This document shows, piece by piece, positions 650 to 12,681 of a DNA stretch of 64,000 nt. The notes beneath the pieces were generated by a model that did not search any database, was not told where the DNA came from, and saw only the letters and a program-made list of their open reading frames with translations. The position numbers and the translations under genes were made by a program. This DNA comes from a virus: the IMG/VR virus record IMGVR_UViG_3300036893_000033, positions 1-64,000 of that record; one strand, given 5' to 3'. How positions within the stretch are numbered: the stretch's first letter is position 1; every line of letters begins with the position of its first letter.

Positions 650-772
650 CAGCGTAGCTGGAACTGCGCATCCCGCGTGAGCTGCCGCGCCTCTGGGCAG
701 TAACGAGGTAAATTTTCGTGGATAAATTAAAGGGAATTATATACTTGACTCCCACAGCGAAATCAGCGGGTT

Positions 773-1771
773 ATGAATAGCCCGTTCCCCTATTTCGGAG
801 GGAAGCGCACGGTCGCGGCGGCTGTGTGGGCGCGGCTCGGATCGCCTGCGCAATACATCGAGCCGTTTTGCGGATCGGCAGCGGTTTTGCTGGCGTGCCC
901 GCGCCCGGCTGCGCTTGAAGTCGTGTGCGACGGGTCCGGCTTCATCGCCAATTTCTGGCGCGCGGTCAAGCATCAACCGGCTGCGGTTGCGGAGTGGGCG
1001 GATTACCCCGTATCGCACATTGACCTCGGCGCGCGCCACGGCTGGCTTATGGCGCAGCGGGATCGCATCGGCGCGGCAATGCAAGACCCGGACTGGGCAG
1101 GCGATGCCAAGGTTGCCGGTTGGTGGCTGTGGGGGCAATGCTGCTGGATCGGTTCCGGCTGGTGCGACTGGTTCGGCAAAATCCCGCATGCGAGCGATGC
1201 CGGGAGGGGCGTACAGGCGATAGGCAAAATCCCGCATGCGAGCGATGCCGGGAGGGGCGTACAGGCGATAGGCAAAATCCCGCATGCGAGCGATGCCGGG
1301 AGGGGCGTACAGGCGATAGGCAAAATCCCGCATGCGAGCGATGCCGGGAGGGGCGCAGACGCCTTGCTGACCTCCTGCGGGCGCACAGCATGGGCGTGGC
1401 TGCATCGGATCGCTGACAGGCTTGAGCGGGTGCGCGTGGTGCATGGTGACTGGTCGCGCTGCCTCAACAATCATTTCGGTGGTGACGACACGGCAGTATT
1501 CCTTGACCCGCCTTATAGGTCCTACGAGGCGCTCTACGGCAAGGCTGGCGCGGTTGCCGATGCGGTCGAAGCATGGGCGCGCGAGAACGAGCACCTGCGG
1601 ATCGCCCTATGCGGGCACCGTGACGATTACAAGCTGGCCGGATGGGACGCCGTGGAGTGGTCGCGCGGGCGGCTCACGTATTCGGGCGGCCAAACCACGG
1701 ATAGCGAGTGCGTCTGGTATTCGCCAGCTTGTCTCCCGGCAGTGCTCACGCAAGAAAGGCTTTTCGCATGA
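773..1771 (+). CDS. DNA adenine methyltransferase (Dam/D12 class)
   Basis: PFPYFGGK, YIEPFCGSAAV (motif I), FLDPPY (motif IV). Confidence 0.9.
   Translation: MNSPFPYFGGKRTVAAAVWARLGSPAQYIEPFCGSAAVLLACPRPAALEVVCDGSGFIANFWRAVKHQPAAVAEWADYPVSHIDLGARHGWLMAQRDRIGAAMQDPDWAGDAKVAGWWLWGQCCWIGSGWCDWFGKIPHASDAGRGVQAIGKIPHASDAGRGVQAIGKIPHASDAGRGVQAIGKIPHASDAGRGADALLTSCGRTAWAWLHRIADRLERVRVVHGDWSRCLNNHFGGDDTAVFLDPPYRSYEALYGKAGAVADAVEAWARENEHLRIALCGHRDDYKLAGWDAVEWSRGRLTYSGGQTTDSECVWYSPACLPAVLTQERLFA
1175..1355 (+). repeat. 48-bp in-frame tandem repeat, about 3.8 copies (GKIPHASDAGRGVQAI)
   Basis: Identical units start at 1175, 1223, 1271 and 1319. Confidence 0.95.
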
Positions 1772-2175
1772 GCGCCGTGGGAGTTAAGTATATAAGTCCC
1801 AAATTAAAGCCGCCCACCACCGCCCAGATCACCACCGAACTCATGCTGCGAATCCCTCGCGATATCCCTGGATGCCTGCACTGGCGGAATAATACTGGCG
1901 TAGCGCGCGCGGATAACAGGTTCGTTCCGTTTGGTATGGTTGGCAGTGCCGACATGCTCGTTGTATTGCCGCCGCGCGGTAGGCTCGCCGGGGTGGAAGT
2001 GAAAGGACCCGGCGACCGGCAGAGCGTGATCCAGGCCGCTTGGGAACTGGCAATACAGCGTGCAGGTGGGGTGTATGTTTTGGCTGAGAAGATCAAGTGG
2101 GGCGTTGGTGATCGGGGACGTTTGGTGCCTGACGTCTCCGGCGTGATTGCGCGGTTACGGGAGGCGTGCGGATGA
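1768..2175 (+). CDS. VRR-NUC family nuclease / Holliday junction resolvase-like protein
   Basis: WRNNTG...GSADML...GVEVKGPGDRQS..Q..W (PD-(D/E)xK); ATG overlaps the MTase TGA. Confidence 0.8.
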   Translation: MSAVGVKYISPKLKPPTTAQITTELMLRIPRDIPGCLHWRNNTGVARADNRFVPFGMVGSADMLVVLPPRGRLAGVEVKGPGDRQSVIQAAWELAIQRAGGVYVLAEKIKWGVGDRGRLVPDVSGVIARLREACG

Positions 2176-5004: not shown

Positions 5005-5096
5005 CACACGGTTCCCTGTTCGCAGGCATCGGTGGCTTTGATCTTGGTTTTGAGAGGGCAGGGATAAGAACCTCATGGCAGGTTGGGACCGAATGA
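5001..5096 (+). pseudogene. Truncated C5-cytosine methyltransferase (motif I only)
   Basis: MTHGSLFAGIGGFDLGFERAGIRTSWQVGTE* is a canonical Dcm N-terminus that stops after 31 aa. Confidence 0.8.
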
Positions 5097-5701
5097 CCGA
5101 CCTGCGGGTGATCGAGGACATCAAGCGACTGGTCAGGCTACCTGCCTTCATCGGCCAGTACGTAAGTCTGCGCAAGGTCGGAGGCCGATACACGGGGCTG
5201 TGTCCGTTCCATAAAGAAAAGTCCCCAAGTCTATCAGTACACGATAATTACTACAAGTGCTTTGGTTGCAGCGCCAAGGGCGATGTCCTTACATTTTACC
5301 AGGAGATCAATTCCGTCAACTTCTCCGATGCAGTTAAGGCGCTGGCTGAATACGCGGGCGTCTCTCTCGACCCCCGCAGGCCCATGCCCCGCGCCGCACA
5401 GCACGCCGCCCGCGAGGATGCCGCTGTATCGGCCTGGTGGTGGGCGCGGCGGCGTCAGTGCGTCATAGACGCCACCTGCGTGGCGTTTAACGACGAAGAC
5501 GAGGAGTTCGCCGAATGCTGTGGCAGACTAAGGCGGTGGATCGAAGCCATGTCGCCCGCCGACCGCGTTAACCAGTGGCTCTGCCACGGCACGGCAGCGG
5601 AGAGGCGGGAGTATCGTCAGGAGATGGCGGATAAAGATGGCTGGCTGGCTGAGATGCAGGGGATGTGGGTAACGGCGCTGGCGGAGGATACGGCGGCGTG
5701 A
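5093..5701 (+). CDS. CHC2 zinc-finger protein (primase N-terminal-like, no evident TOPRIM)
   Basis: GLCPFHKEKSPS...YKCFGC...GDVLTF...F.DAVK.LA. Confidence 0.85.
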   Translation: MTDLRVIEDIKRLVRLPAFIGQYVSLRKVGGRYTGLCPFHKEKSPSLSVHDNYYKCFGCSAKGDVLTFYQEINSVNFSDAVKALAEYAGVSLDPRRPMPRAAQHAAREDAAVSAWWWARRRQCVIDATCVAFNDEDEEFAECCGRLRRWIEAMSPADRVNQWLCHGTAAERREYRQEMADKDGWLAEMQGMWVTALAEDTAA

Positions 5702-6480
5702 CGCATACACTGGAGTGCGGCGACTGCCTGGAGTTGATGAAGGAGATTCCGGCGGGGTCGGTGGATATGGTGCTGTGCGATCTGCCCTATGGGACGACGC
5801 AGAACAAGTGGGATAGCGTGATTCCGTTTGAACTGTTGTGGAAGGAGTATCGGCGGGCCTGCAAGAGGAATGCGGCAATGGTGTTCACGGCGATTCAGCC
5901 GTTTACAAGTGCGCTGGTGATGAGCAATCCAGGGATGTTCAAGTATGACTGGACATGGCGGAAACCAAAGGGTACCGGGCACCTGAATGCAAAGAAGCAG
6001 CCGTTGCGTGACAAAGAGGACATTATAGTTTTTTATGAAATACAGCCTGCCTACAATCCCCAATGGGGCAACGGCGAGCCTTATAACGGAAATTCACGGA
6101 TTGGCAAGAAACAGCAGACCAGTAATTATGGAACCTATGAAGCTGTCAGAGAAGATAGCGACGGAAGACGATACCCAAAACAGGTAATTGAATTTAATGT
6201 TGTGGGTGTTGGCGGCGAGCACCCCACCCAAAAACCAGTAGCCCTCTTCGAGTACCTCATCCGCACCTACACCAACCCCGGCGAAAATGTTCTCGACAAC
6301 TGCTGCGGTTCCGGCACAACCGGCGTAGCCTGCGCCAACACTGGCCGCTCCAGCATCCAGTTCGAGTTATCCCCGGAGTACGTGGCTATCGCCCGCAGGA
6401 GATTGGATCAGGCACTAAACCCCACCAGTGAAACAGGACAGGCGGCGCTGTTCACACAGTCCGAGGCCACCCCCGCGTGA
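5698..6480 (+). CDS. DNA N6-adenine/N4-cytosine methyltransferase (beta class)
   Basis: GDCLELM, CDLPYG, HPTQKPVAL, VLDNCCGSGTT. Confidence 0.92.
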   Translation: MTHTLECGDCLELMKEIPAGSVDMVLCDLPYGTTQNKWDSVIPFELLWKEYRRACKRNAAMVFTAIQPFTSALVMSNPGMFKYDWTWRKPKGTGHLNAKKQPLRDKEDIIVFYEIQPAYNPQWGNGEPYNGNSRIGKKQQTSNYGTYEAVREDSDGRRYPKQVIEFNVVGVGGEHPTQKPVALFEYLIRTYTNPGENVLDNCCGSGTTGVACANTGRSSIQFELSPEYVAIARRRLDQALNPTSETGQAALFTQSEATPA

Positions 6481-8051
6481 TCCCCGGCGAGGACACCCCC
6501 ACCACAGATCCCGACGCCACAGAACCATCCACACACAAACCCACCACGCCGCTCGCCTTCAGGGTCGCCAGTGCGATCCTGGCCGGCGTCGAAGCCTGCT
6601 ACGAGCCGGAACTTGCACGCCTGTTCGCCTGCGCCTACCTGCAGCGCGGGGAATCCGTCCTGGAGGCCGACGAACTTGAGGCAAAATTAAAATCCAGGTT
6701 CGGCAAGGATTTCAACCTTCACCGGTTCCGTAAGGGAGTCAAGGCGATTCAGGAGCAGATAGCGGCGGAAGCGCGACCCGTTTCCGGTTCGGACTGGACC
6801 TCAAAGCTAATCCGCAAACCGCCCTCTTTCACTCAGGCTGCCCCATGCGTCACCAACGCCCTCCTTTATTTCGACAACCACGAAGCGTGGGCGGGAAATC
6901 TGAAATGGAACGAGTTTACGGGTGAGCCGCTTGTGACGGGCGACCTGCCCATCGGGCTTGCCGCCGGAGAGCCTGTCCGCGATCATCACGACACGCTCGT
7001 GCAGTCGTGGTTCGAGCGCGAGACGCAGGACTACAAATGGACAATCGACACCGTGCGGCGGTCAGCCGACTGCTGGGCTAAGGCGAACAGTTTCCATCCC
7101 GTCAAAGACTACCTGAACGGACTTCCAGCCCATGACGGCGTGCCGCGCCTTGAAACATGGCTACAGCGGCTCTGTGGCGCAGGCCCCAGCGAATCCAACG
7201 ACTCCGATGATGCAATCGCACTGAATAACTTCATCTCGGCTATCGGAGTGCGCTGGTGGATATCGATGATAGCCAGAATCTTCGAGCCAGGCTGCAAGGT
7301 TCACCATGTGCTCGTGCTTGAAGGGGCTAAAGGCATCGGGAAAACGACCCTGGCTGAGATCATTTTCGGAGAATGGTACGCCGTCATCGTGGGCGATGTC
7401 ACCAGCAAAGACAACCAGGCGCTTCTGAGCGCGGGCCTCTGGGGTGTTCTGATGGACGAACTGGACGTTCTCGGAAAGTCAGAAATGCGCTCGATTAAGT
7501 CATGGGTAACCCGCGACTTCGAAAAGTTCCGGCCCACCTGGGGCCATCGCCACGAAAAGCGCCCTCGCCAGTGCGTGTTTATCGCAACCGTGAACGGCGA
7601 CGATTGGGCGCTCGAAGAGGACCGACGATGGTGGCCGGTGGCGTGCAAGAAGGCGTTCGATCTGGACGGCCTGCGCGCGGAACGCGACCTGCTGATGGCT
7701 GAGGCGCTGCACCGCTATCGGGACGGCCAGCGCTGGTACCTGCACCCGGATGAGGATAGGGAGTTGATCGTAACCGCCAGGCAGGAGCAGTCCACGCGCG
7801 TAACTGAGAACGTTAACGCGGTAAGCTTTCTGTCGGCGGCCCACGCCTGCGCGGGGCTTTCGCATGAGTTCCCCGGAACATGCTCCGTGGAAGAAATTAT
7901 GAATAACCTCAAGGTGCCGCTTGGCAGGGAACGCTTCAGTCTTGCCCCGCAATGCGGAAAGGCGCTCACGCAGTCCGGCTGGAAGCGCGAGCGCCCACGC
8001 GGAGACGACGGCGTGCAGAGGGTCAGATACCGGAAACCGGATAAAGCCTAG
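6477..8051 (+). CDS. VapE/VirE family helicase
   Basis: FHPVKDYL, PGCKVHHVLVLEGAKGIGKT (Walker A), MDELD (Walker B), RQCVFIATVN, DRRWWPV. Confidence 0.9.
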   Translation: MIPGEDTPTTDPDATEPSTHKPTTPLAFRVASAILAGVEACYEPELARLFACAYLQRGESVLEADELEAKLKSRFGKDFNLHRFRKGVKAIQEQIAAEARPVSGSDWTSKLIRKPPSFTQAAPCVTNALLYFDNHEAWAGNLKWNEFTGEPLVTGDLPIGLAAGEPVRDHHDTLVQSWFERETQDYKWTIDTVRRSADCWAKANSFHPVKDYLNGLPAHDGVPRLETWLQRLCGAGPSESNDSDDAIALNNFISAIGVRWWISMIARIFEPGCKVHHVLVLEGAKGIGKTTLAEIIFGEWYAVIVGDVTSKDNQALLSAGLWGVLMDELDVLGKSEMRSIKSWVTRDFEKFRPTWGHRHEKRPRQCVFIATVNGDDWALEEDRRWWPVACKKAFDLDGLRAERDLLMAEALHRYRDGQRWYLHPDEDRELIVTARQEQSTRVTENVNAVSFLSAAHACAGLSHEFPGTCSVEEIMNNLKVPLGRERFSLAPQCGKALTQSGWKRERPRGDDGVQRVRYRKPDKA

Positions 8052-9422: not shown

Positions 9423-9848
9423 TCATTCGAACCCCCGACAACCACAATAATACGAATCAAACTCATAAGCCCCGTGCGCAACGAATCCCCGGCACCGCCC
9501 CTGCTCTACTACGGTACGTCGGTTGCCTGGTACGTTCCGCGCCATGCTGTCGGGGTCGTGCGCCGCCCATGCGTAACCGCACAGTCCGCAGCTATCGACA
9601 GCCCGCCGCGACCCTTCTCCCATGTACTCGAAGAACGCCAGCCTCATGCTGGATGGCTGCGTGTGGCCACAGGAGCACCGCGCTACGCGCCCGGACAGGT
9701 CCGGAGTGGCCATGGGCACCGGGTCGGCACCGATGCCCACGCAGATCGCGCATGATGGATTGCCGTGACCGTCTGTGGAGTTGGCCGCGTGGCCGCAGGA
9801 GAGCATGGTGTCAGAGAGCATGGTGTCAGAGAGCATGGTGTCAGACAT
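9423..9848 (-). CDS. Cys-rich phage hypothetical protein with N-terminal 15-bp repeat
   Basis: MSDT(MLSDT)2MLSCGH; multiple CxxC; ends DSYYCGCRGFE. Confidence 0.65.
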   Translation of the reverse strand: MSDTMLSDTMLSDTMLSCGHAANSTDGHGNPSCAICVGIGADPVPMATPDLSGRVARCSCGHTQPSSMRLAFFEYMGEGSRRAVDSCGLCGYAWAAHDPDSMARNVPGNRRTVVEQGRCRGFVAHGAYEFDSYYCGCRGFE

Positions 9849-9981
9849 GGGATACCCCGTATATTAATCCAACCAGGCACAGCGCCAGCAACCCATACCA
9901 CAACAGCAGGCATCGGGCGTGCCGCTCCTCGTCCGTAGCATTGCGCCAGAATTCTTTGATGTCTTTGCCGAGCGCCTTCAT
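9841..9981 (-). CDS. Small membrane protein
   Basis: MKALGKDIKEFW...LLLWYGLLALCLVGLIYG; GGAGG RBS overlaps the IS target duplication. Confidence 0.55.
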   Translation of the reverse strand: MKALGKDIKEFWRNATDEERHARCLLLWYGLLALCLVGLIYGVSHV

Positions 9982-10024
9982 GGTGTCCTCCAAAGGGGAA
10001 TTATATACATGAGTACAGAATGCC

Positions 10025-10150
10025 TCACTTCTTGGACGCACGCTTCGCCCTCTTTTTCTCGCGGCGCTTCGAAGCCTTCGCTTTCTCCTTTGGCTTGTAG
10101 TTCAGGACTACGTCGGAGATCAGGTCTAACTCGGGTGGCGTCTTACTCAT
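10025..10150 (-). CDS. Small basic peptide at the IS1595 end (41 aa)
   Basis: MSKTPPELDLISDVVLNYKPKEKAKASKRREKKRAKRASKK*; hand-translated, below the ORF-track cutoff. Confidence 0.55.
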   Translation of the reverse strand: MSKTPPELDLISDVVLNYKPKEKAKASKRREKKRAKRASKK

Positions 10151-10310
10151 GTTTAGTTGCCTTTCGTGCTGCCCACTTCATCGCGTCATCTGCGTTTTTC
10201 TTCAGGAATCGCGCCAACTCCCTGAGTCCGAGTTGGCTGTACGTGGATGCCAACACCCGCATCCTTCCGGCTTCGTCAAGCGCGAACTCTCGTTGCTGTT
10301 CATCATTCAT
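10143..10310 (-). CDS. IS passenger hypothetical protein (55 aa)
   Basis: MNDEQQREFALDEAGRMRVLASTYSQLGLRELARFLKKNADDAMKWAARKATKHE*; overlaps both neighbours. Confidence 0.5.
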   Translation of the reverse strand: MNDEQQREFALDEAGRMRVLASTYSQLGLRELARFLKKNADDAMKWAARKATKHE

Positions 10311-11109
10311 CGTCGCCCCCGTCGTTACACATACAGGGAATTTGATCCGGCTCGGGGAGTTCTTCAGCTTGCGCCGGGGTAATGTTTACGAACTGACTCC
10401 AGGCGAATTTCCGGCCAAGCCCTTTGACTGCTGGCGTTCCATCTTGCAGGAGCCTATCGGGCTGACTGTGATACGCAACCGCGTTGCGCTCCATTGCCAA
10501 TGCGTCCTCGAAAAGATCGGGGTGAGTGTCCCGAAGCCAGATTATTTCGTGGGGTTTAGACGACGGGCAGAAGTAACAGGCAGACTTCATGGGAATCGGC
10601 AGGCCTGCCCGCTCCAGCGCGTCAAGACACTCTTGTTGACCCCATCCCCATTCCTTCAGCAAGTATCTGTAGCGATAGCGTCCCTTTTCAAAAATCCCGC
10701 TCCCGCGCTTCTCTCCCGCGTGGTAGCCAATGATTTTGGTGATGATCTGATCCCGCCCGTAGGTCTGCGTCTCGTACCGCTCCATGATCTGATGCTTGAA
10801 TTTTACGGAGCATCCCGGAAATCCGTAGGACTTAGACGGCAATGTACCGTTTCGGAAACAACTCTCGCGGAGACTGTCCCGCCAATGCCCAACAGTGATA
10901 ATTCCACGGTCGAGATTGCGGACTACCCACGGTCGCATGTACCGATCAACGTAGTCATAGGTTTCCGGCTTCTCTCCGCGCTTTTCTGGATCACTGCCAG
11001 CCGTGTCCGCGAAGATGATGTAGTCAGGCGGTTCGATGCCCTTCTCTTTCATGCCAACCAGCATCGCGCTACCGTTGATCCCGGCCCCGTAGGACATTCC
11101 GGTAATCAT
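10303..11109 (-). CDS. PAPS reductase-like (PP-loop) passenger protein
   Basis: MSYGAGINGSAML, IIFADT, CSVKFK, IIGYHAGE, PMKSACYFCP. Confidence 0.75.
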   Translation of the reverse strand: MITGMSYGAGINGSAMLVGMKEKGIEPPDYIIFADTAGSDPEKRGEKPETYDYVDRYMRPWVVRNLDRGIITVGHWRDSLRESCFRNGTLPSKSYGFPGCSVKFKHQIMERYETQTYGRDQIITKIIGYHAGEKRGSGIFEKGRYRYRYLLKEWGWGQQECLDALERAGLPIPMKSACYFCPSSKPHEIIWLRDTHPDLFEDALAMERNAVAYHSQPDRLLQDGTPAVKGLGRKFAWSQFVNITPAQAEELPEPDQIPCMCNDGGDDE

Positions 11110-12050
11110 GCCGACACCTTCGCAATCAACCGCTCATACGTGAGGCGTTTCCCGACAATGGCGTCAATGAACGATTCCAGCCGCCGCATGGTGTGGCGCT
11201 TCACGTCGCCTTCGTTCAGGCGGAACGTGAACTCATCGACGTATCGGTGCAGATGCTTCGGAGACACCTGATGGTAAACGCCATGAATGCCGCGCTTCAG
11301 AACCGCCCAGACCGATTCAATGCCATTCGTGTGGGCTACGCCGTTGACCCACTGGCCAGCGGAATGGTTGCAGGTTTCGTGCCGGAAGAACAGGCCGTTC
11401 AGGTCAGTGTACGCGCCGAATTCGTCCGTGTAAATCTGGCTGCCAGCTTCCACCGCGCCGTGAATCTCGTTCTGGACCGTGCCCGCGTCCGTGGAGTCCA
11501 CCACCATAGCGACCGTGCGGCCACCAGCGCCACGCTCCCGCATCCCGAGGACGGCAGTCTTGCCGACGCTCCCGCGTCCAGCCTTGAGCTTTTTGTGCTC
11601 GTGTTTGTTCTTTTCCTTGCCACCGACAAACGTCTCATCAATCTCGATGATGCCCCGGAGTTTGTCGATGTTGTCGGGCGACGAACAGGCTTCCCGCAAC
11701 CGGCCCAAAATAAACCAAGCGGTTTTCTGGGTCACGCCGATTTCCTTCGCCAACTGCATCGAACTGATACCCTTGCGGGCCGTGACAACCAGGTACATCG
11801 AATAGACCCACTTGTGAAGCGGAACCTTCGACCGTTCAAACACCGTGCCAGTCCGAACCGTGAAATCGAAGTTACAGGCGTTGCAGTGATAGAACCCCAA
11901 CCGCTTGCGGACGGTGACCTGTTCACCAGACCGGCAGTCGGGGCAAACCGTGCCAGTGGGCCAGAGCCGCGATTCGAGATAGACCCGCGCCGATTCGTTG
12001 TCGGGGAACATCTCGAAGAGTTTGAAAGTGCTGATGGTCGAACGGCTCAT
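11106..12050 (-). CDS. IS1595-family transposase
   Basis: Zn ribbon CPDC...CNAC; KGISSMQLAKEIGVTQKTAW; EIDETFVGG, YTDE, HTNGIESVW, YVDEFTFR. Confidence 0.95.
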   Translation of the reverse strand: MSRSTISTFKLFEMFPDNESARVYLESRLWPTGTVCPDCRSGEQVTVRKRLGFYHCNACNFDFTVRTGTVFERSKVPLHKWVYSMYLVVTARKGISSMQLAKEIGVTQKTAWFILGRLREACSSPDNIDKLRGIIEIDETFVGGKEKNKHEHKKLKAGRGSVGKTAVLGMRERGAGGRTVAMVVDSTDAGTVQNEIHGAVEAGSQIYTDEFGAYTDLNGLFFRHETCNHSAGQWVNGVAHTNGIESVWAVLKRGIHGVYHQVSPKHLHRYVDEFTFRLNEGDVKRHTMRRLESFIDAIVGKRLTYERLIAKVSA

Positions 12051-12119
12051 GACTTAATTGTAGATGAGTACAGAGGCGAACGCAAGCGAAAATCGTCTGT
12101 ACTCATGTATATAATTCCC

Positions 12120-12232
12120 CTCCAAAGCTTCCGCAACTGATACCACAGCATCGCGCAGCCTGACCCGAAGAAGAATCCGCCAAGCCACAAGCACAGTTCC
12201 ATTACGCCCCGCTCCGCTGGGGTGAGGGTCAT
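12120..12232 (-). pseudogene. Small membrane-protein gene interrupted near its 3' end by IS1595
   Basis: Empty-site reconstruction gives MTLTPAERG...QLRKLWRTP* with the stop coupled to the ATG at 9981. Confidence 0.6.
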
Positions 12233-12681
12233 GACTTAACCCCTGACGGCTTCACGTTCGGATCAACGCCCTCAGGCTCCTCCGCTGCTTCCGGGTATCT
12301 TCGTGGTGTGCCTGCTTCCGCAATCCGCTTATCAATCGCAGCCAGCCTCCGCGCGGACTGCTCCCCCGCCTCGTGGCGCAACGCCTGAAGCGCCAGCAGT
12401 TCCGTCGAGTACAGGTGTAGCGGGCGCTGCGATGTGGTTTTATCCCAACCATGAAGTGAATGATGAACGGAACTGGAGCACGCCTTGCCGACTTCATCCG
12501 CGTAGGAATTAAACATCCATCCCTTAGTCAGAATCATTCCAGTCCACCCCGGCCGCGGCGGCGGAAGGTCGGGCTTCACCACTGCCGTTCTCCGCATGGC
12601 ACGCTCCAGCATTACTTCCCGTGCCAACTGCTCTATGGTGGCCTCCAGCGAGGCTAACTGTGCTTTCTCCGTCTTCGTCAT
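12229..12681 (-). CDS. Phage hypothetical protein
   Basis: 150-aa ORF with AAAGGA RBS. Confidence 0.65.
   Translation of the reverse strand: MTKTEKAQLASLEATIEQLAREVMLERAMRRTAVVKPDLPPPRPGWTGMILTKGWMFNSYADEVGKACSSSVHHSLHGWDKTTSQRPLHLYSTELLALQALRHEAGEQSARRLAAIDKRIAEAGTPRRYPEAAEEPEGVDPNVKPSGVKS

Follow-up and report, generated by a model that had tools for sequence, protein, structure and literature searches.

Positions 732-1800 of the window analysed here, the first 64 kb of the 94,887-bp IMG/VR virus record IMGVR_UViG_3300036893_000033, probably constitute a non-autonomous mobile insertion cassette that has the ends of an IS1595-family insertion sequence (IS), carries a D12-class DNA methyltransferase gene and would be expressed by termination-reinitiation. 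Given its repeats, target duplications and sister copies, a history of transposition appears close to certain; the translational wiring that we predict for the cassette is likely, if only by a little. An earlier examination of this DNA, called here the sequence-only reading, had proposed that a transposase-less IS1595-type cassette delivered an adenine methyltransferase to the phage and repaired the VRR-NUC nuclease gene into which it had landed.

Results

The cassette is 1,069 bp long (732-1800), with IS1595-type ends and no transposase. Its left terminal inverted repeat (732-759, plus strand, GGGAATTATATACTTGACTCCCACAGCG) and right terminal inverted repeat (1773-1800, minus strand) are each 28 nt long and differ by three mismatches, and the 24-nt repeat core occurs in the 64 kb only at these two cassette ends, with 0 sites expected from 100 shuffles. 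An 8-bp target-site duplication, AAATTAAA, matches exactly on both flanks (724-731 and 1801-1808), and its right copy begins at a codon boundary of the nuclease gene. The sequence-only reading was accurate in its cassette coordinates, repeats and duplication, and in describing the methyltransferase gene as the only content between the repeats. The open reading frame (ORF) at 773-1771 is the sole sizeable content, beginning 13 nt past the left repeat and finishing 1 nt short of the right one; no promoter-like or terminator-like sites were found inside the cassette. The first 22 nt of the left end equal the consensus end of ~60 autonomous IS1595-family elements among the matches listed, a scope that holds for all family-wide counts of elements and duplications below, and the consensus end of this IS1595-family group is GGGAATTATATACTTGACTCCC. 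The cassette ends are probably of the ISNwi1-like group (ISNwi1/ISNwi1+), an assignment presumed from the ISfinder end consensus ggnnatTAT. The methyltransferase is the only ORF of the cassette, and a DDE transposase with an N-terminal zinc ribbon is absent. Lacking its own transposase, the cassette is therefore classed as a derivative resembling the mobile insertion cassettes (MICs), which combine IS ends and a passenger gene with the absence of a transposase, as this one does, and not as an IS.

Related copies were abundant. The cassette end pattern was matched in 11 other phage stretches, and the same D12 methyltransferase recurs in L008, a 1,069-bp cassette flanked by the duplication AATCTGAA. 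Sister cassettes carry an N6_N4 methyltransferase (L013, 1,158 bp, duplication TTCGAGTT; L006/L010, 1,288 bp, GAAAATTT), a small N6_N4 methyltransferase (L011, 757 bp, ATTGTTTT) or an unknown 118-aa ORF (L007, 421 bp, TTTTAATA), and a third D12 cassette, L269, was also recovered. A looser end pattern, GGGANTTATATACTTRACTCC, was matched in >120 stretches of prokaryote genomes from many phyla and in >119 stretches of viral contigs, and end pairing gave 94 unique family sites at which the 8-bp duplication is exact. A+T makes up 83% of the duplications versus 44% of the flanks, with a strong A/T preference at positions 2, 3, 6 and 7. About 60 of the elements are autonomous, encoding transposases 50-77% identical to that found elsewhere in the window and usually holding one to three passenger genes; ~40 have no transposase and range from 100-bp miniature elements up to a 2.6-kb cassette. 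One autonomous element, L105, is identical to the cassette over its terminal 24 bp (24/24 nt), and its transposase passes the NCBIfam model NF033547 (202 bits, cut-off 75). Overall, the same and sister cassettes elsewhere, their different duplications and the ends common to autonomous elements support the earlier description of a mobile, transposase-less IS1595-type cassette. A search proposed in that description, for pairs of such ends with 8-bp duplications and no transposase, yielded many examples whose cargos could be tabulated, and the alternative it had named, a single decayed IS without other copies, is contradicted by L008 and the sister cassettes.

The cargos of the cassettes include N6_N4 methyltransferases (8 cassettes), D12 (3) and phage Dam (3) enzymes, as well as C5 cytosine methyltransferase, N6_Mtase with a specificity domain and Mom, and several small cargos have no family match. 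Similarly, passengers of the autonomous elements include N6_N4 (one fused to HNH), C5 and N6_Mtase enzymes together with a reductase-like gene of the element in the window described below. The cargo of the lineage, as judged from family matches, is mostly DNA modification. One phage contig, L173, has two cassettes (1658-2462 and 11961-12588), one with an N6_N4 methyltransferase and the other with a Mom-family DNA-modification gene (PF25680, 2.3e-18). A scan with the internal leader motif AATCAGYGGGTTATGA returned mostly chance matches and only two new cassettes. In an alphaproteobacterial metagenome-assembled genome (L059, 1466-2196), three same-strand end matches lie exactly 355 bp apart, a spacing that suggests a tandem array of miniature elements.

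The cargo in the window (773-1771, plus strand, 332 aa) encodes a divergent D12-class (Dam-like) N6-adenine DNA methyltransferase. It reaches 31.1 bits against Pfam D12 (PF02086, cut-off 22) in an alignment of residues 7-69 only, matches the PHROG 56 DNA methyltransferase at 1.8e-25 and has the alpha-class motif order, with EPFCGSAAV near the N-terminus and VFLDPPY (the DPPY motif) in the C-terminal half. Near relatives were not found among GenBank phages, where the best matches, annotated phage DNA adenine methylases, share 35% identity over 97-99% of the length. The protein scores 32.8 bits against the Dam subfamily model TIGR00571, below the NCBIfam cut-off of 114.85; it is therefore not a Dam orthologue by name, and GATC specificity is not assumable. 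The methyltransferase probably, and plausibly, shields phage DNA from host restriction.

Comparison of the window cassette with its L008 counterpart revealed 0 mismatches in the first 58 nt, 2 in the last 40 nt and 94 of 971 in the interior. The methyltransferase gene itself gave a nonsynonymous to synonymous substitution ratio (dN/dS) of 0.11 at a synonymous divergence (dS) of 0.35, and it is therefore under purifying selection. Because the end mismatches are few and dN/dS is low, cassette ends and methyltransferase gene are both taken to be maintained. Conservation of the ends reaches past the inverted repeat: on the left it takes in the cargo up to codon 4, on the right it starts at cargo codon -6, and so exceeds the 22-nt transposase-type repeat. 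Furthermore, D12 and N6_N4 cassettes, which carry unrelated enzymes, have common first codons (MNSP/MSSP) and a common last six (QERLFA). QERLFA, the C-terminal motif, seems to belong by origin to the N6_N4 enzymes, which makes it probable that a cassette already in existence, with a constant adaptor frame, had its cargo exchanged for the D12 gene.

Within the methyltransferase gene, an in-frame tandem repeat (1175-1362, plus strand) consists of ~4 copies of a 48-bp unit (16 aa, GKIPHASDAGRGVQAI) placed between the S-adenosylmethionine-binding and DPPY halves of the protein. Copies 1-3 are identical in DNA. The L008 gene has 4 diverged copies and that of L269 has 2, so copy number varies, and the window copies seem to have been homogenised recently; variation of this repeat could tune target recognition.

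The wiring predicted at the window locus begins with the ribosome-binding site (RBS) that the nuclease gene probably used before the insertion, GAGG at 704-707 (plus strand), 10 nt upstream of GTG 718. This GAGG likely now serves a leader mini-ORF of 20 codons (718-780, plus strand; translation VDKLKGIIYLTPTAKSAGYE, then a stop), in which the GTG and GAT codons of the nuclease are followed by the left copy of the duplication and then the left inverted repeat. The leader stop, TAG 778-780, sits 5 nt beyond the cargo ATG at 773, before which no Shine-Dalgarno sequence was found, and a leader-type read-in stop at element position 47-49 is also present in L013, L011 and L006m. At the other end, ATG 1768 overlaps the cargo TGA (1769-1771) as ATGA and opens a frame that extends to 2175. 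One of the three outward frames through the right repeat is open (VGVKYISP) and contains a GTG; ATG 1768 lies in this sole open frame, in frame with the nuclease. Since that frame is open and the duplication stands on a codon boundary, reading continues in frame into the nuclease gene. The in-frame restart at an ATG overlapping the methyltransferase TGA is thus as the sequence-only reading had it, and the same type of restart occurs in other cassettes. As sequence logic, the predicted 'repair' wiring at the window holds.

The VRR-NUC-like nuclease gene as now configured (1768-2175, plus strand) has an intact frame of 135 codons, and the public gene call for it (P0001) begins at ATG 1768: MSAVGVKYISPKLKPPTT. 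Its product starts with the 11-residue leader MSAVGVKYISP, derived from the right end of the cassette, followed by the original KLKPPTT. In silico removal of the element and one duplication copy gave an ORF from GTG 718 in which the duplication starts on a codon boundary, reproducing the nuclease start that had been reconstructed earlier; the insertion point lies directly after the second nuclease codon (GTG, GAT). Support for the VRR-NUC name is weaker than the sequence-only reading implied, with a score of 19.6 bits against PF08774 that lies below the Pfam cut-off of 23.8 on the one side, and a match to the PHROG 93 endonuclease (1.8e-8) and the presence of PF08774 in the homologue P0003 (43% identity) on the other. 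The closest nuclease homologue, P0002 (79% identity), starts MGNKPPTT without the 11-residue leader and provides the best evidence for what would be the empty state. An alignment of the three nuclease sequences shows all invariant columns kept, including E13, which is upstream of the next possible start. The claim that the cassette repairs the gene it entered is therefore right in that an in-frame restart exists and overstated in that the first two codons have been replaced by an 11-residue leader. Related phages with an empty site, which the earlier account had proposed to look for, were not found at the DNA level: the empty-site pattern, exact or degenerate, had 0 matches in viral contigs; a junction-spanning BLAST of 90+ reconstructed empty sites against the collected loci had 0 matches; and relatives of the nuclease were absent from viral contigs and reached at best 46% identity in metagenome contigs.

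Similar junctions were observed across the family. In five intragenic insertions of the subfamily, the duplication starts in phase 0 relative to the codons of a host ORF on the same strand. The hosts are the VRR-NUC gene of the window, a phrog_19005 protein in L008 (aligned from profile position 3), a DnaJ-domain protein in L013 and, in L011 and L006m, ORFs just upstream of RusA and NinB genes, which their ends overlap. In L173a the duplication includes the host start codon; by sequence reading, the upstream ATG copy would read via the left repeat to a TGA overlapping the cargo ATG, and the exit frame finishes in a TGA overlapping the host ATG. A start codon overlaps the cargo stop or lies within 3 nt of it at 16/31 distinct 3' junctions, and 14/16 of these starts are open to the element end versus 8.0 expected; at least six unrelated junction sequences are represented. 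Among cassettes without a Shine-Dalgarno sequence, 23/30 incoming non-cargo frames stop between -30 and +15 nt of the cargo start, and ATGA overlaps that keep register with the left boundary are found repeatedly, behind leaders of 27, 36, 39, 42 and 54 nt. Tabulated in this way, as the sequence-only reading had suggested, in-frame restart at the right end is commoner than chance across different cargos and is not universal. Cassette orientation relative to the longest flanking ORFs (11 same, 5 opposite, 8 mixed) was not used, because antisense ORFs outlength real genes in GC-rich DNA.

The window also contains an autonomous IS1595-family element of 2,124 bp (9996-12119, minus strand), whose 24-bp inverted repeats, GGGAATTATATACATGAGTACAGA, are perfect and which is flanked by CTCCAAAG, duplicated at 9988-9995 and 12120-12127. 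Its zinc-ribbon/DDE transposase (11106-12050, minus strand) matches Pfam DDE_Tnp_IS1595 at 1.6e-47 and NF033547 with 207.7 bits (cut-off 75). A protein search with the transposase returned no IS names, and among GenBank phages neither the transposase (best 37%) nor the window region has a near relative. A passenger gene resembling phosphoadenosine phosphosulfate (PAPS) reductase (10303-11109, minus strand; phrog_424, 5.7e-25; no Pfam match) has a 4-nt overlap with the transposase stop; two small ORFs come after it, one of 55 aa and a lysine-rich one of 41 aa. The ends of this element and of the cassette are identical over their first 13 nt and diverge completely thereafter. The element interrupts a membrane-like minus-strand ORF of 40 codons (region 9978-12232), entering it within its final three codons and at codon phase 0. 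The host ORF (12047-12232, start 12232) runs into the element, where its stop and the transposase ATG overlap as ATGA. On the exit side, the stop of the last element ORF is overlapped by a GTG, which reads out as VRHSVLMYIIPLWRTP and a stop, a 16-codon exit ORF that restores the last five codons of the host ORF and its overlap with the ATG of the next gene (9981). To judge from these overlaps, the element appears to show cassette-like stop-restart wiring. IS1595 transposases are absent from five further phage records that bear a cassette, one of which is 100% complete; the helper would therefore normally come from outside the phage, and it probably sits in the host chromosome.

Discussion

We propose that a transposase acting in trans put the cassette at the AT-rich site AAATTAAA within the VRR-NUC-like gene of the phage replication module. 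Because the cassette has no promoter, terminator or cargo RBS of its own, we infer that it is expressed from the operon in which it landed, by termination-reinitiation. Ribosomes would use the nuclease RBS and GTG 718 to translate the 20-codon leader, terminate at TAG 778-780, which overlaps the region of the methyltransferase ATG, and make the methyltransferase; after its TGA (1769-1771) they would restart at ATG 1768 and run in frame into the nuclease, whose product would bear 11 new N-terminal residues in place of the first two.

Several observations weigh against this account. The Dam models match the cargo in its N-terminal third only, and a DNA-level empty site for the window insertion was not found. 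L014 (3567-4266) and L269 (8985-9975) have intact ends without matching 8-bp duplications, which recombination between copies or adjacent deletions could explain. Roughly half the cassette junction types lack a restart codon and come with a Shine-Dalgarno sequence of their own. The insertions in L007, L173b and L220 look out of phase, in host ORFs without homology support, and counting such ORFs leaves 5/7 insertions in phase (p ~0.05). Any AT-rich end yields one open outward frame in three, and the junction types share ancestry, so that their counts overstate independence. Finally, all the phages are uncultivated, and their translational coupling is a prediction from sequence.

With about even odds, the ends of the lineage may have evolved as translational adaptors, with cargos, nearly all of them DNA-modification genes, exchanged within a constant frame. 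Such a left end would close all three incoming frames around the cargo ATG, and such a right end would close two frames and open the third at a start codon overlapping the cargo stop, so that a cassette could sit within or between phage ORFs without polarity. Alternatively, a mobile cassette with unadapted ends may insert at random, an in-frame restart persisting only where the downstream gene stays translatable. Such survivorship accords with the one outward frame in three that is open anyway, with the roughly half of junction types that have no restart codon and with the possible out-of-phase insertions; furthermore, the GTG and open frame follow from an end sequence common to autonomous elements, and AT-rich targets naturally gather at gene boundaries in GC-rich phages. 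Against it, the 14/16 stop-overlapping starts that are exit-open, versus 8 expected, have spacers of 26, 29, 31 and 56 nt, register-keeping ATGA overlaps recur with five leader lengths (27-54 nt), and conservation of the ends continues well past the 22-nt transposase-type repeat. We consider survivorship unlikely. The insertion might instead have inactivated a dispensable nuclease gene, the ORF from ATG 1768 being untranslated or its product non-functional, as the foreign N-terminal leader and the VRR-NUC match under the Pfam cut-off would allow. However, the frame is intact over 135 codons, the alignment-invariant columns are all kept, E13 among them, and the in-phase pattern recurs at other insertions, which makes such inactivation improbable.

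The origin of the transposase bears on the transposition step of our proposal. The IS1595 transposase of the window (11106-12050) is a possible but doubtful helper for movement of the cassette within the phage: both elements lie in one 95-kb phage record, both made 8-bp duplications and their first 13 end nt agree. In contrast, the ends are wholly different past position 13, the 22-nt end of the cassette is the consensus of other transposases that are 50-77% identical to that of the window, and the five other cassette-bearing phage records encode no IS1595 transposase. As for the repeats themselves, the missing empty site at the window locus would fit one decayed relic, or a palindrome that regulated an ancestral methyltransferase gene of the phage, better than a transposable unit. 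Such an origin is extremely improbable, as the same ends are present around this cargo and others at many sites, with exact duplications that differ, and these ends match those of autonomous IS1595 elements.

Two established kinds of element are comparable to the proposed cassette, IS1595-family ISs with passenger genes and MICs (PMC3129680). The former have been termed 'transporter IS' (Siguier, Gagnevin & Chandler 2009, cited in PMC3129680 and PMC2853133). They resemble the cassette in the start of their ends, GGGAATTAT, and in the 8-bp duplication, and they encode a zinc-ribbon and DDE IS1595 transposase, whereas the window cassette encodes none. MICs, such as the IS231-derived MIC231 of Bacillus cereus (De Palmenaer et al. 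2004, cited in PMC3129680), likewise have IS ends, one or more passenger genes, no transposase and presumed mobilisation in trans. MIC231 belongs to the IS4 family, unlike the IS1595-type cassette, and MICs are chromosomal or plasmid-borne with their own expression signals; the window cassette appears to depend on host translation, and only 13 and 1 nt separate its cargo from the repeats. Restriction-modification and orphan methyltransferase genes have also been reported between inverted repeats with 8-bp duplications, for which the authors raised a non-autonomous transposon as a possible explanation (Furuta, Abe & Kobayashi 2010; PMC2853133). Those units share imperfect inverted repeats, an 8-bp duplication and the absence of a transposase with the cassette; each is a lone locus in a bacterial chromosome (Xanthomonas, Neisseria), has repeats of different sequence and, unlike the cassette, is not tied to IS-family ends, phages or translational coupling.

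A parallel to the proposed read-in is offered by integron cassettes without their own translation initiation region, which are reportedly expressed via a short attI ORF (ORF-11). Like the window cassette, they are promoterless, RBS-less and coupled to a short upstream ORF of the insertion context; unlike it, they move by site-specific recombination at attI/attC and not by transposition, and they are not known to restart translation into a host gene on the way out. Phages also carry orphan DNA methyltransferases and morons. The window cargo resembles the orphans as a solitary gene in an early or replication region with a presumed anti-restriction role, and differs from orphans and morons in having come as a transposable unit with ends and a target duplication. 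Literature searches found no papers on phage-borne IS1595 cassettes, a cargo bias toward DNA modification or stop-restart ends.

The usual view is that insertion sequences seldom occur in phage genomes and do harm there, since coding sequence takes up almost all bases and translation links the genes in chains. The cassette lineage suggests a route round this coding density, in which ribosomes are borrowed from the gene entered and then returned. It moves at least six DNA-modification families (D12, N6_N4, C5, N6_Mtase, Dam and Mom) among uncultivated phages of many bacterial phyla. Were the coupling to be confirmed, it would explain fast acquisition and shuffling of anti-restriction methyltransferases by phages, constitute a new expression strategy for mobile insertion cassettes and show how a compact natural unit can add genes to operons without polarity. 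If the ends are indeed adaptors, environmental phages would possess a transposon-based, frame-aware plug-in system for trading anti-restriction genes.

Other features of the region

The neighbourhood of the cassette is a replication module with two further methyltransferase genes, a primase and a helicase, which brings the number of methyltransferase genes in this phage to three within 6 kb. The nuclease stop overlaps, as ATGA, the start of a 30-codon ORF, which is followed, within 2172-2905, by a gene for a 216-aa DNA methyltransferase-like protein (phrog_757, no Pfam match). A DNA methyltransferase gene at 5665-6480 (phrog_67) has a primase-like ORF (5075-5701) on one side and a primase/helicase ORF (6477-8051) on the other, and the three have overlapping starts and stops. 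This methyltransferase gene was rejected as a second cassette, having no flanking IS-type repeats.

Two further tandem repeats occur in the window. Positions 1-290 hold at least 12 copies of a 24-bp unit that encodes 8 residues, in the C-terminal part of a phrog_18079 match; the matching protein is probably fibre-like. At 9799-9845, a 15-bp unit is present three times (GAGAGCATGGTGTCA...), giving SDTML three times at the N-terminus of the minus-strand ORF 9423-9848.

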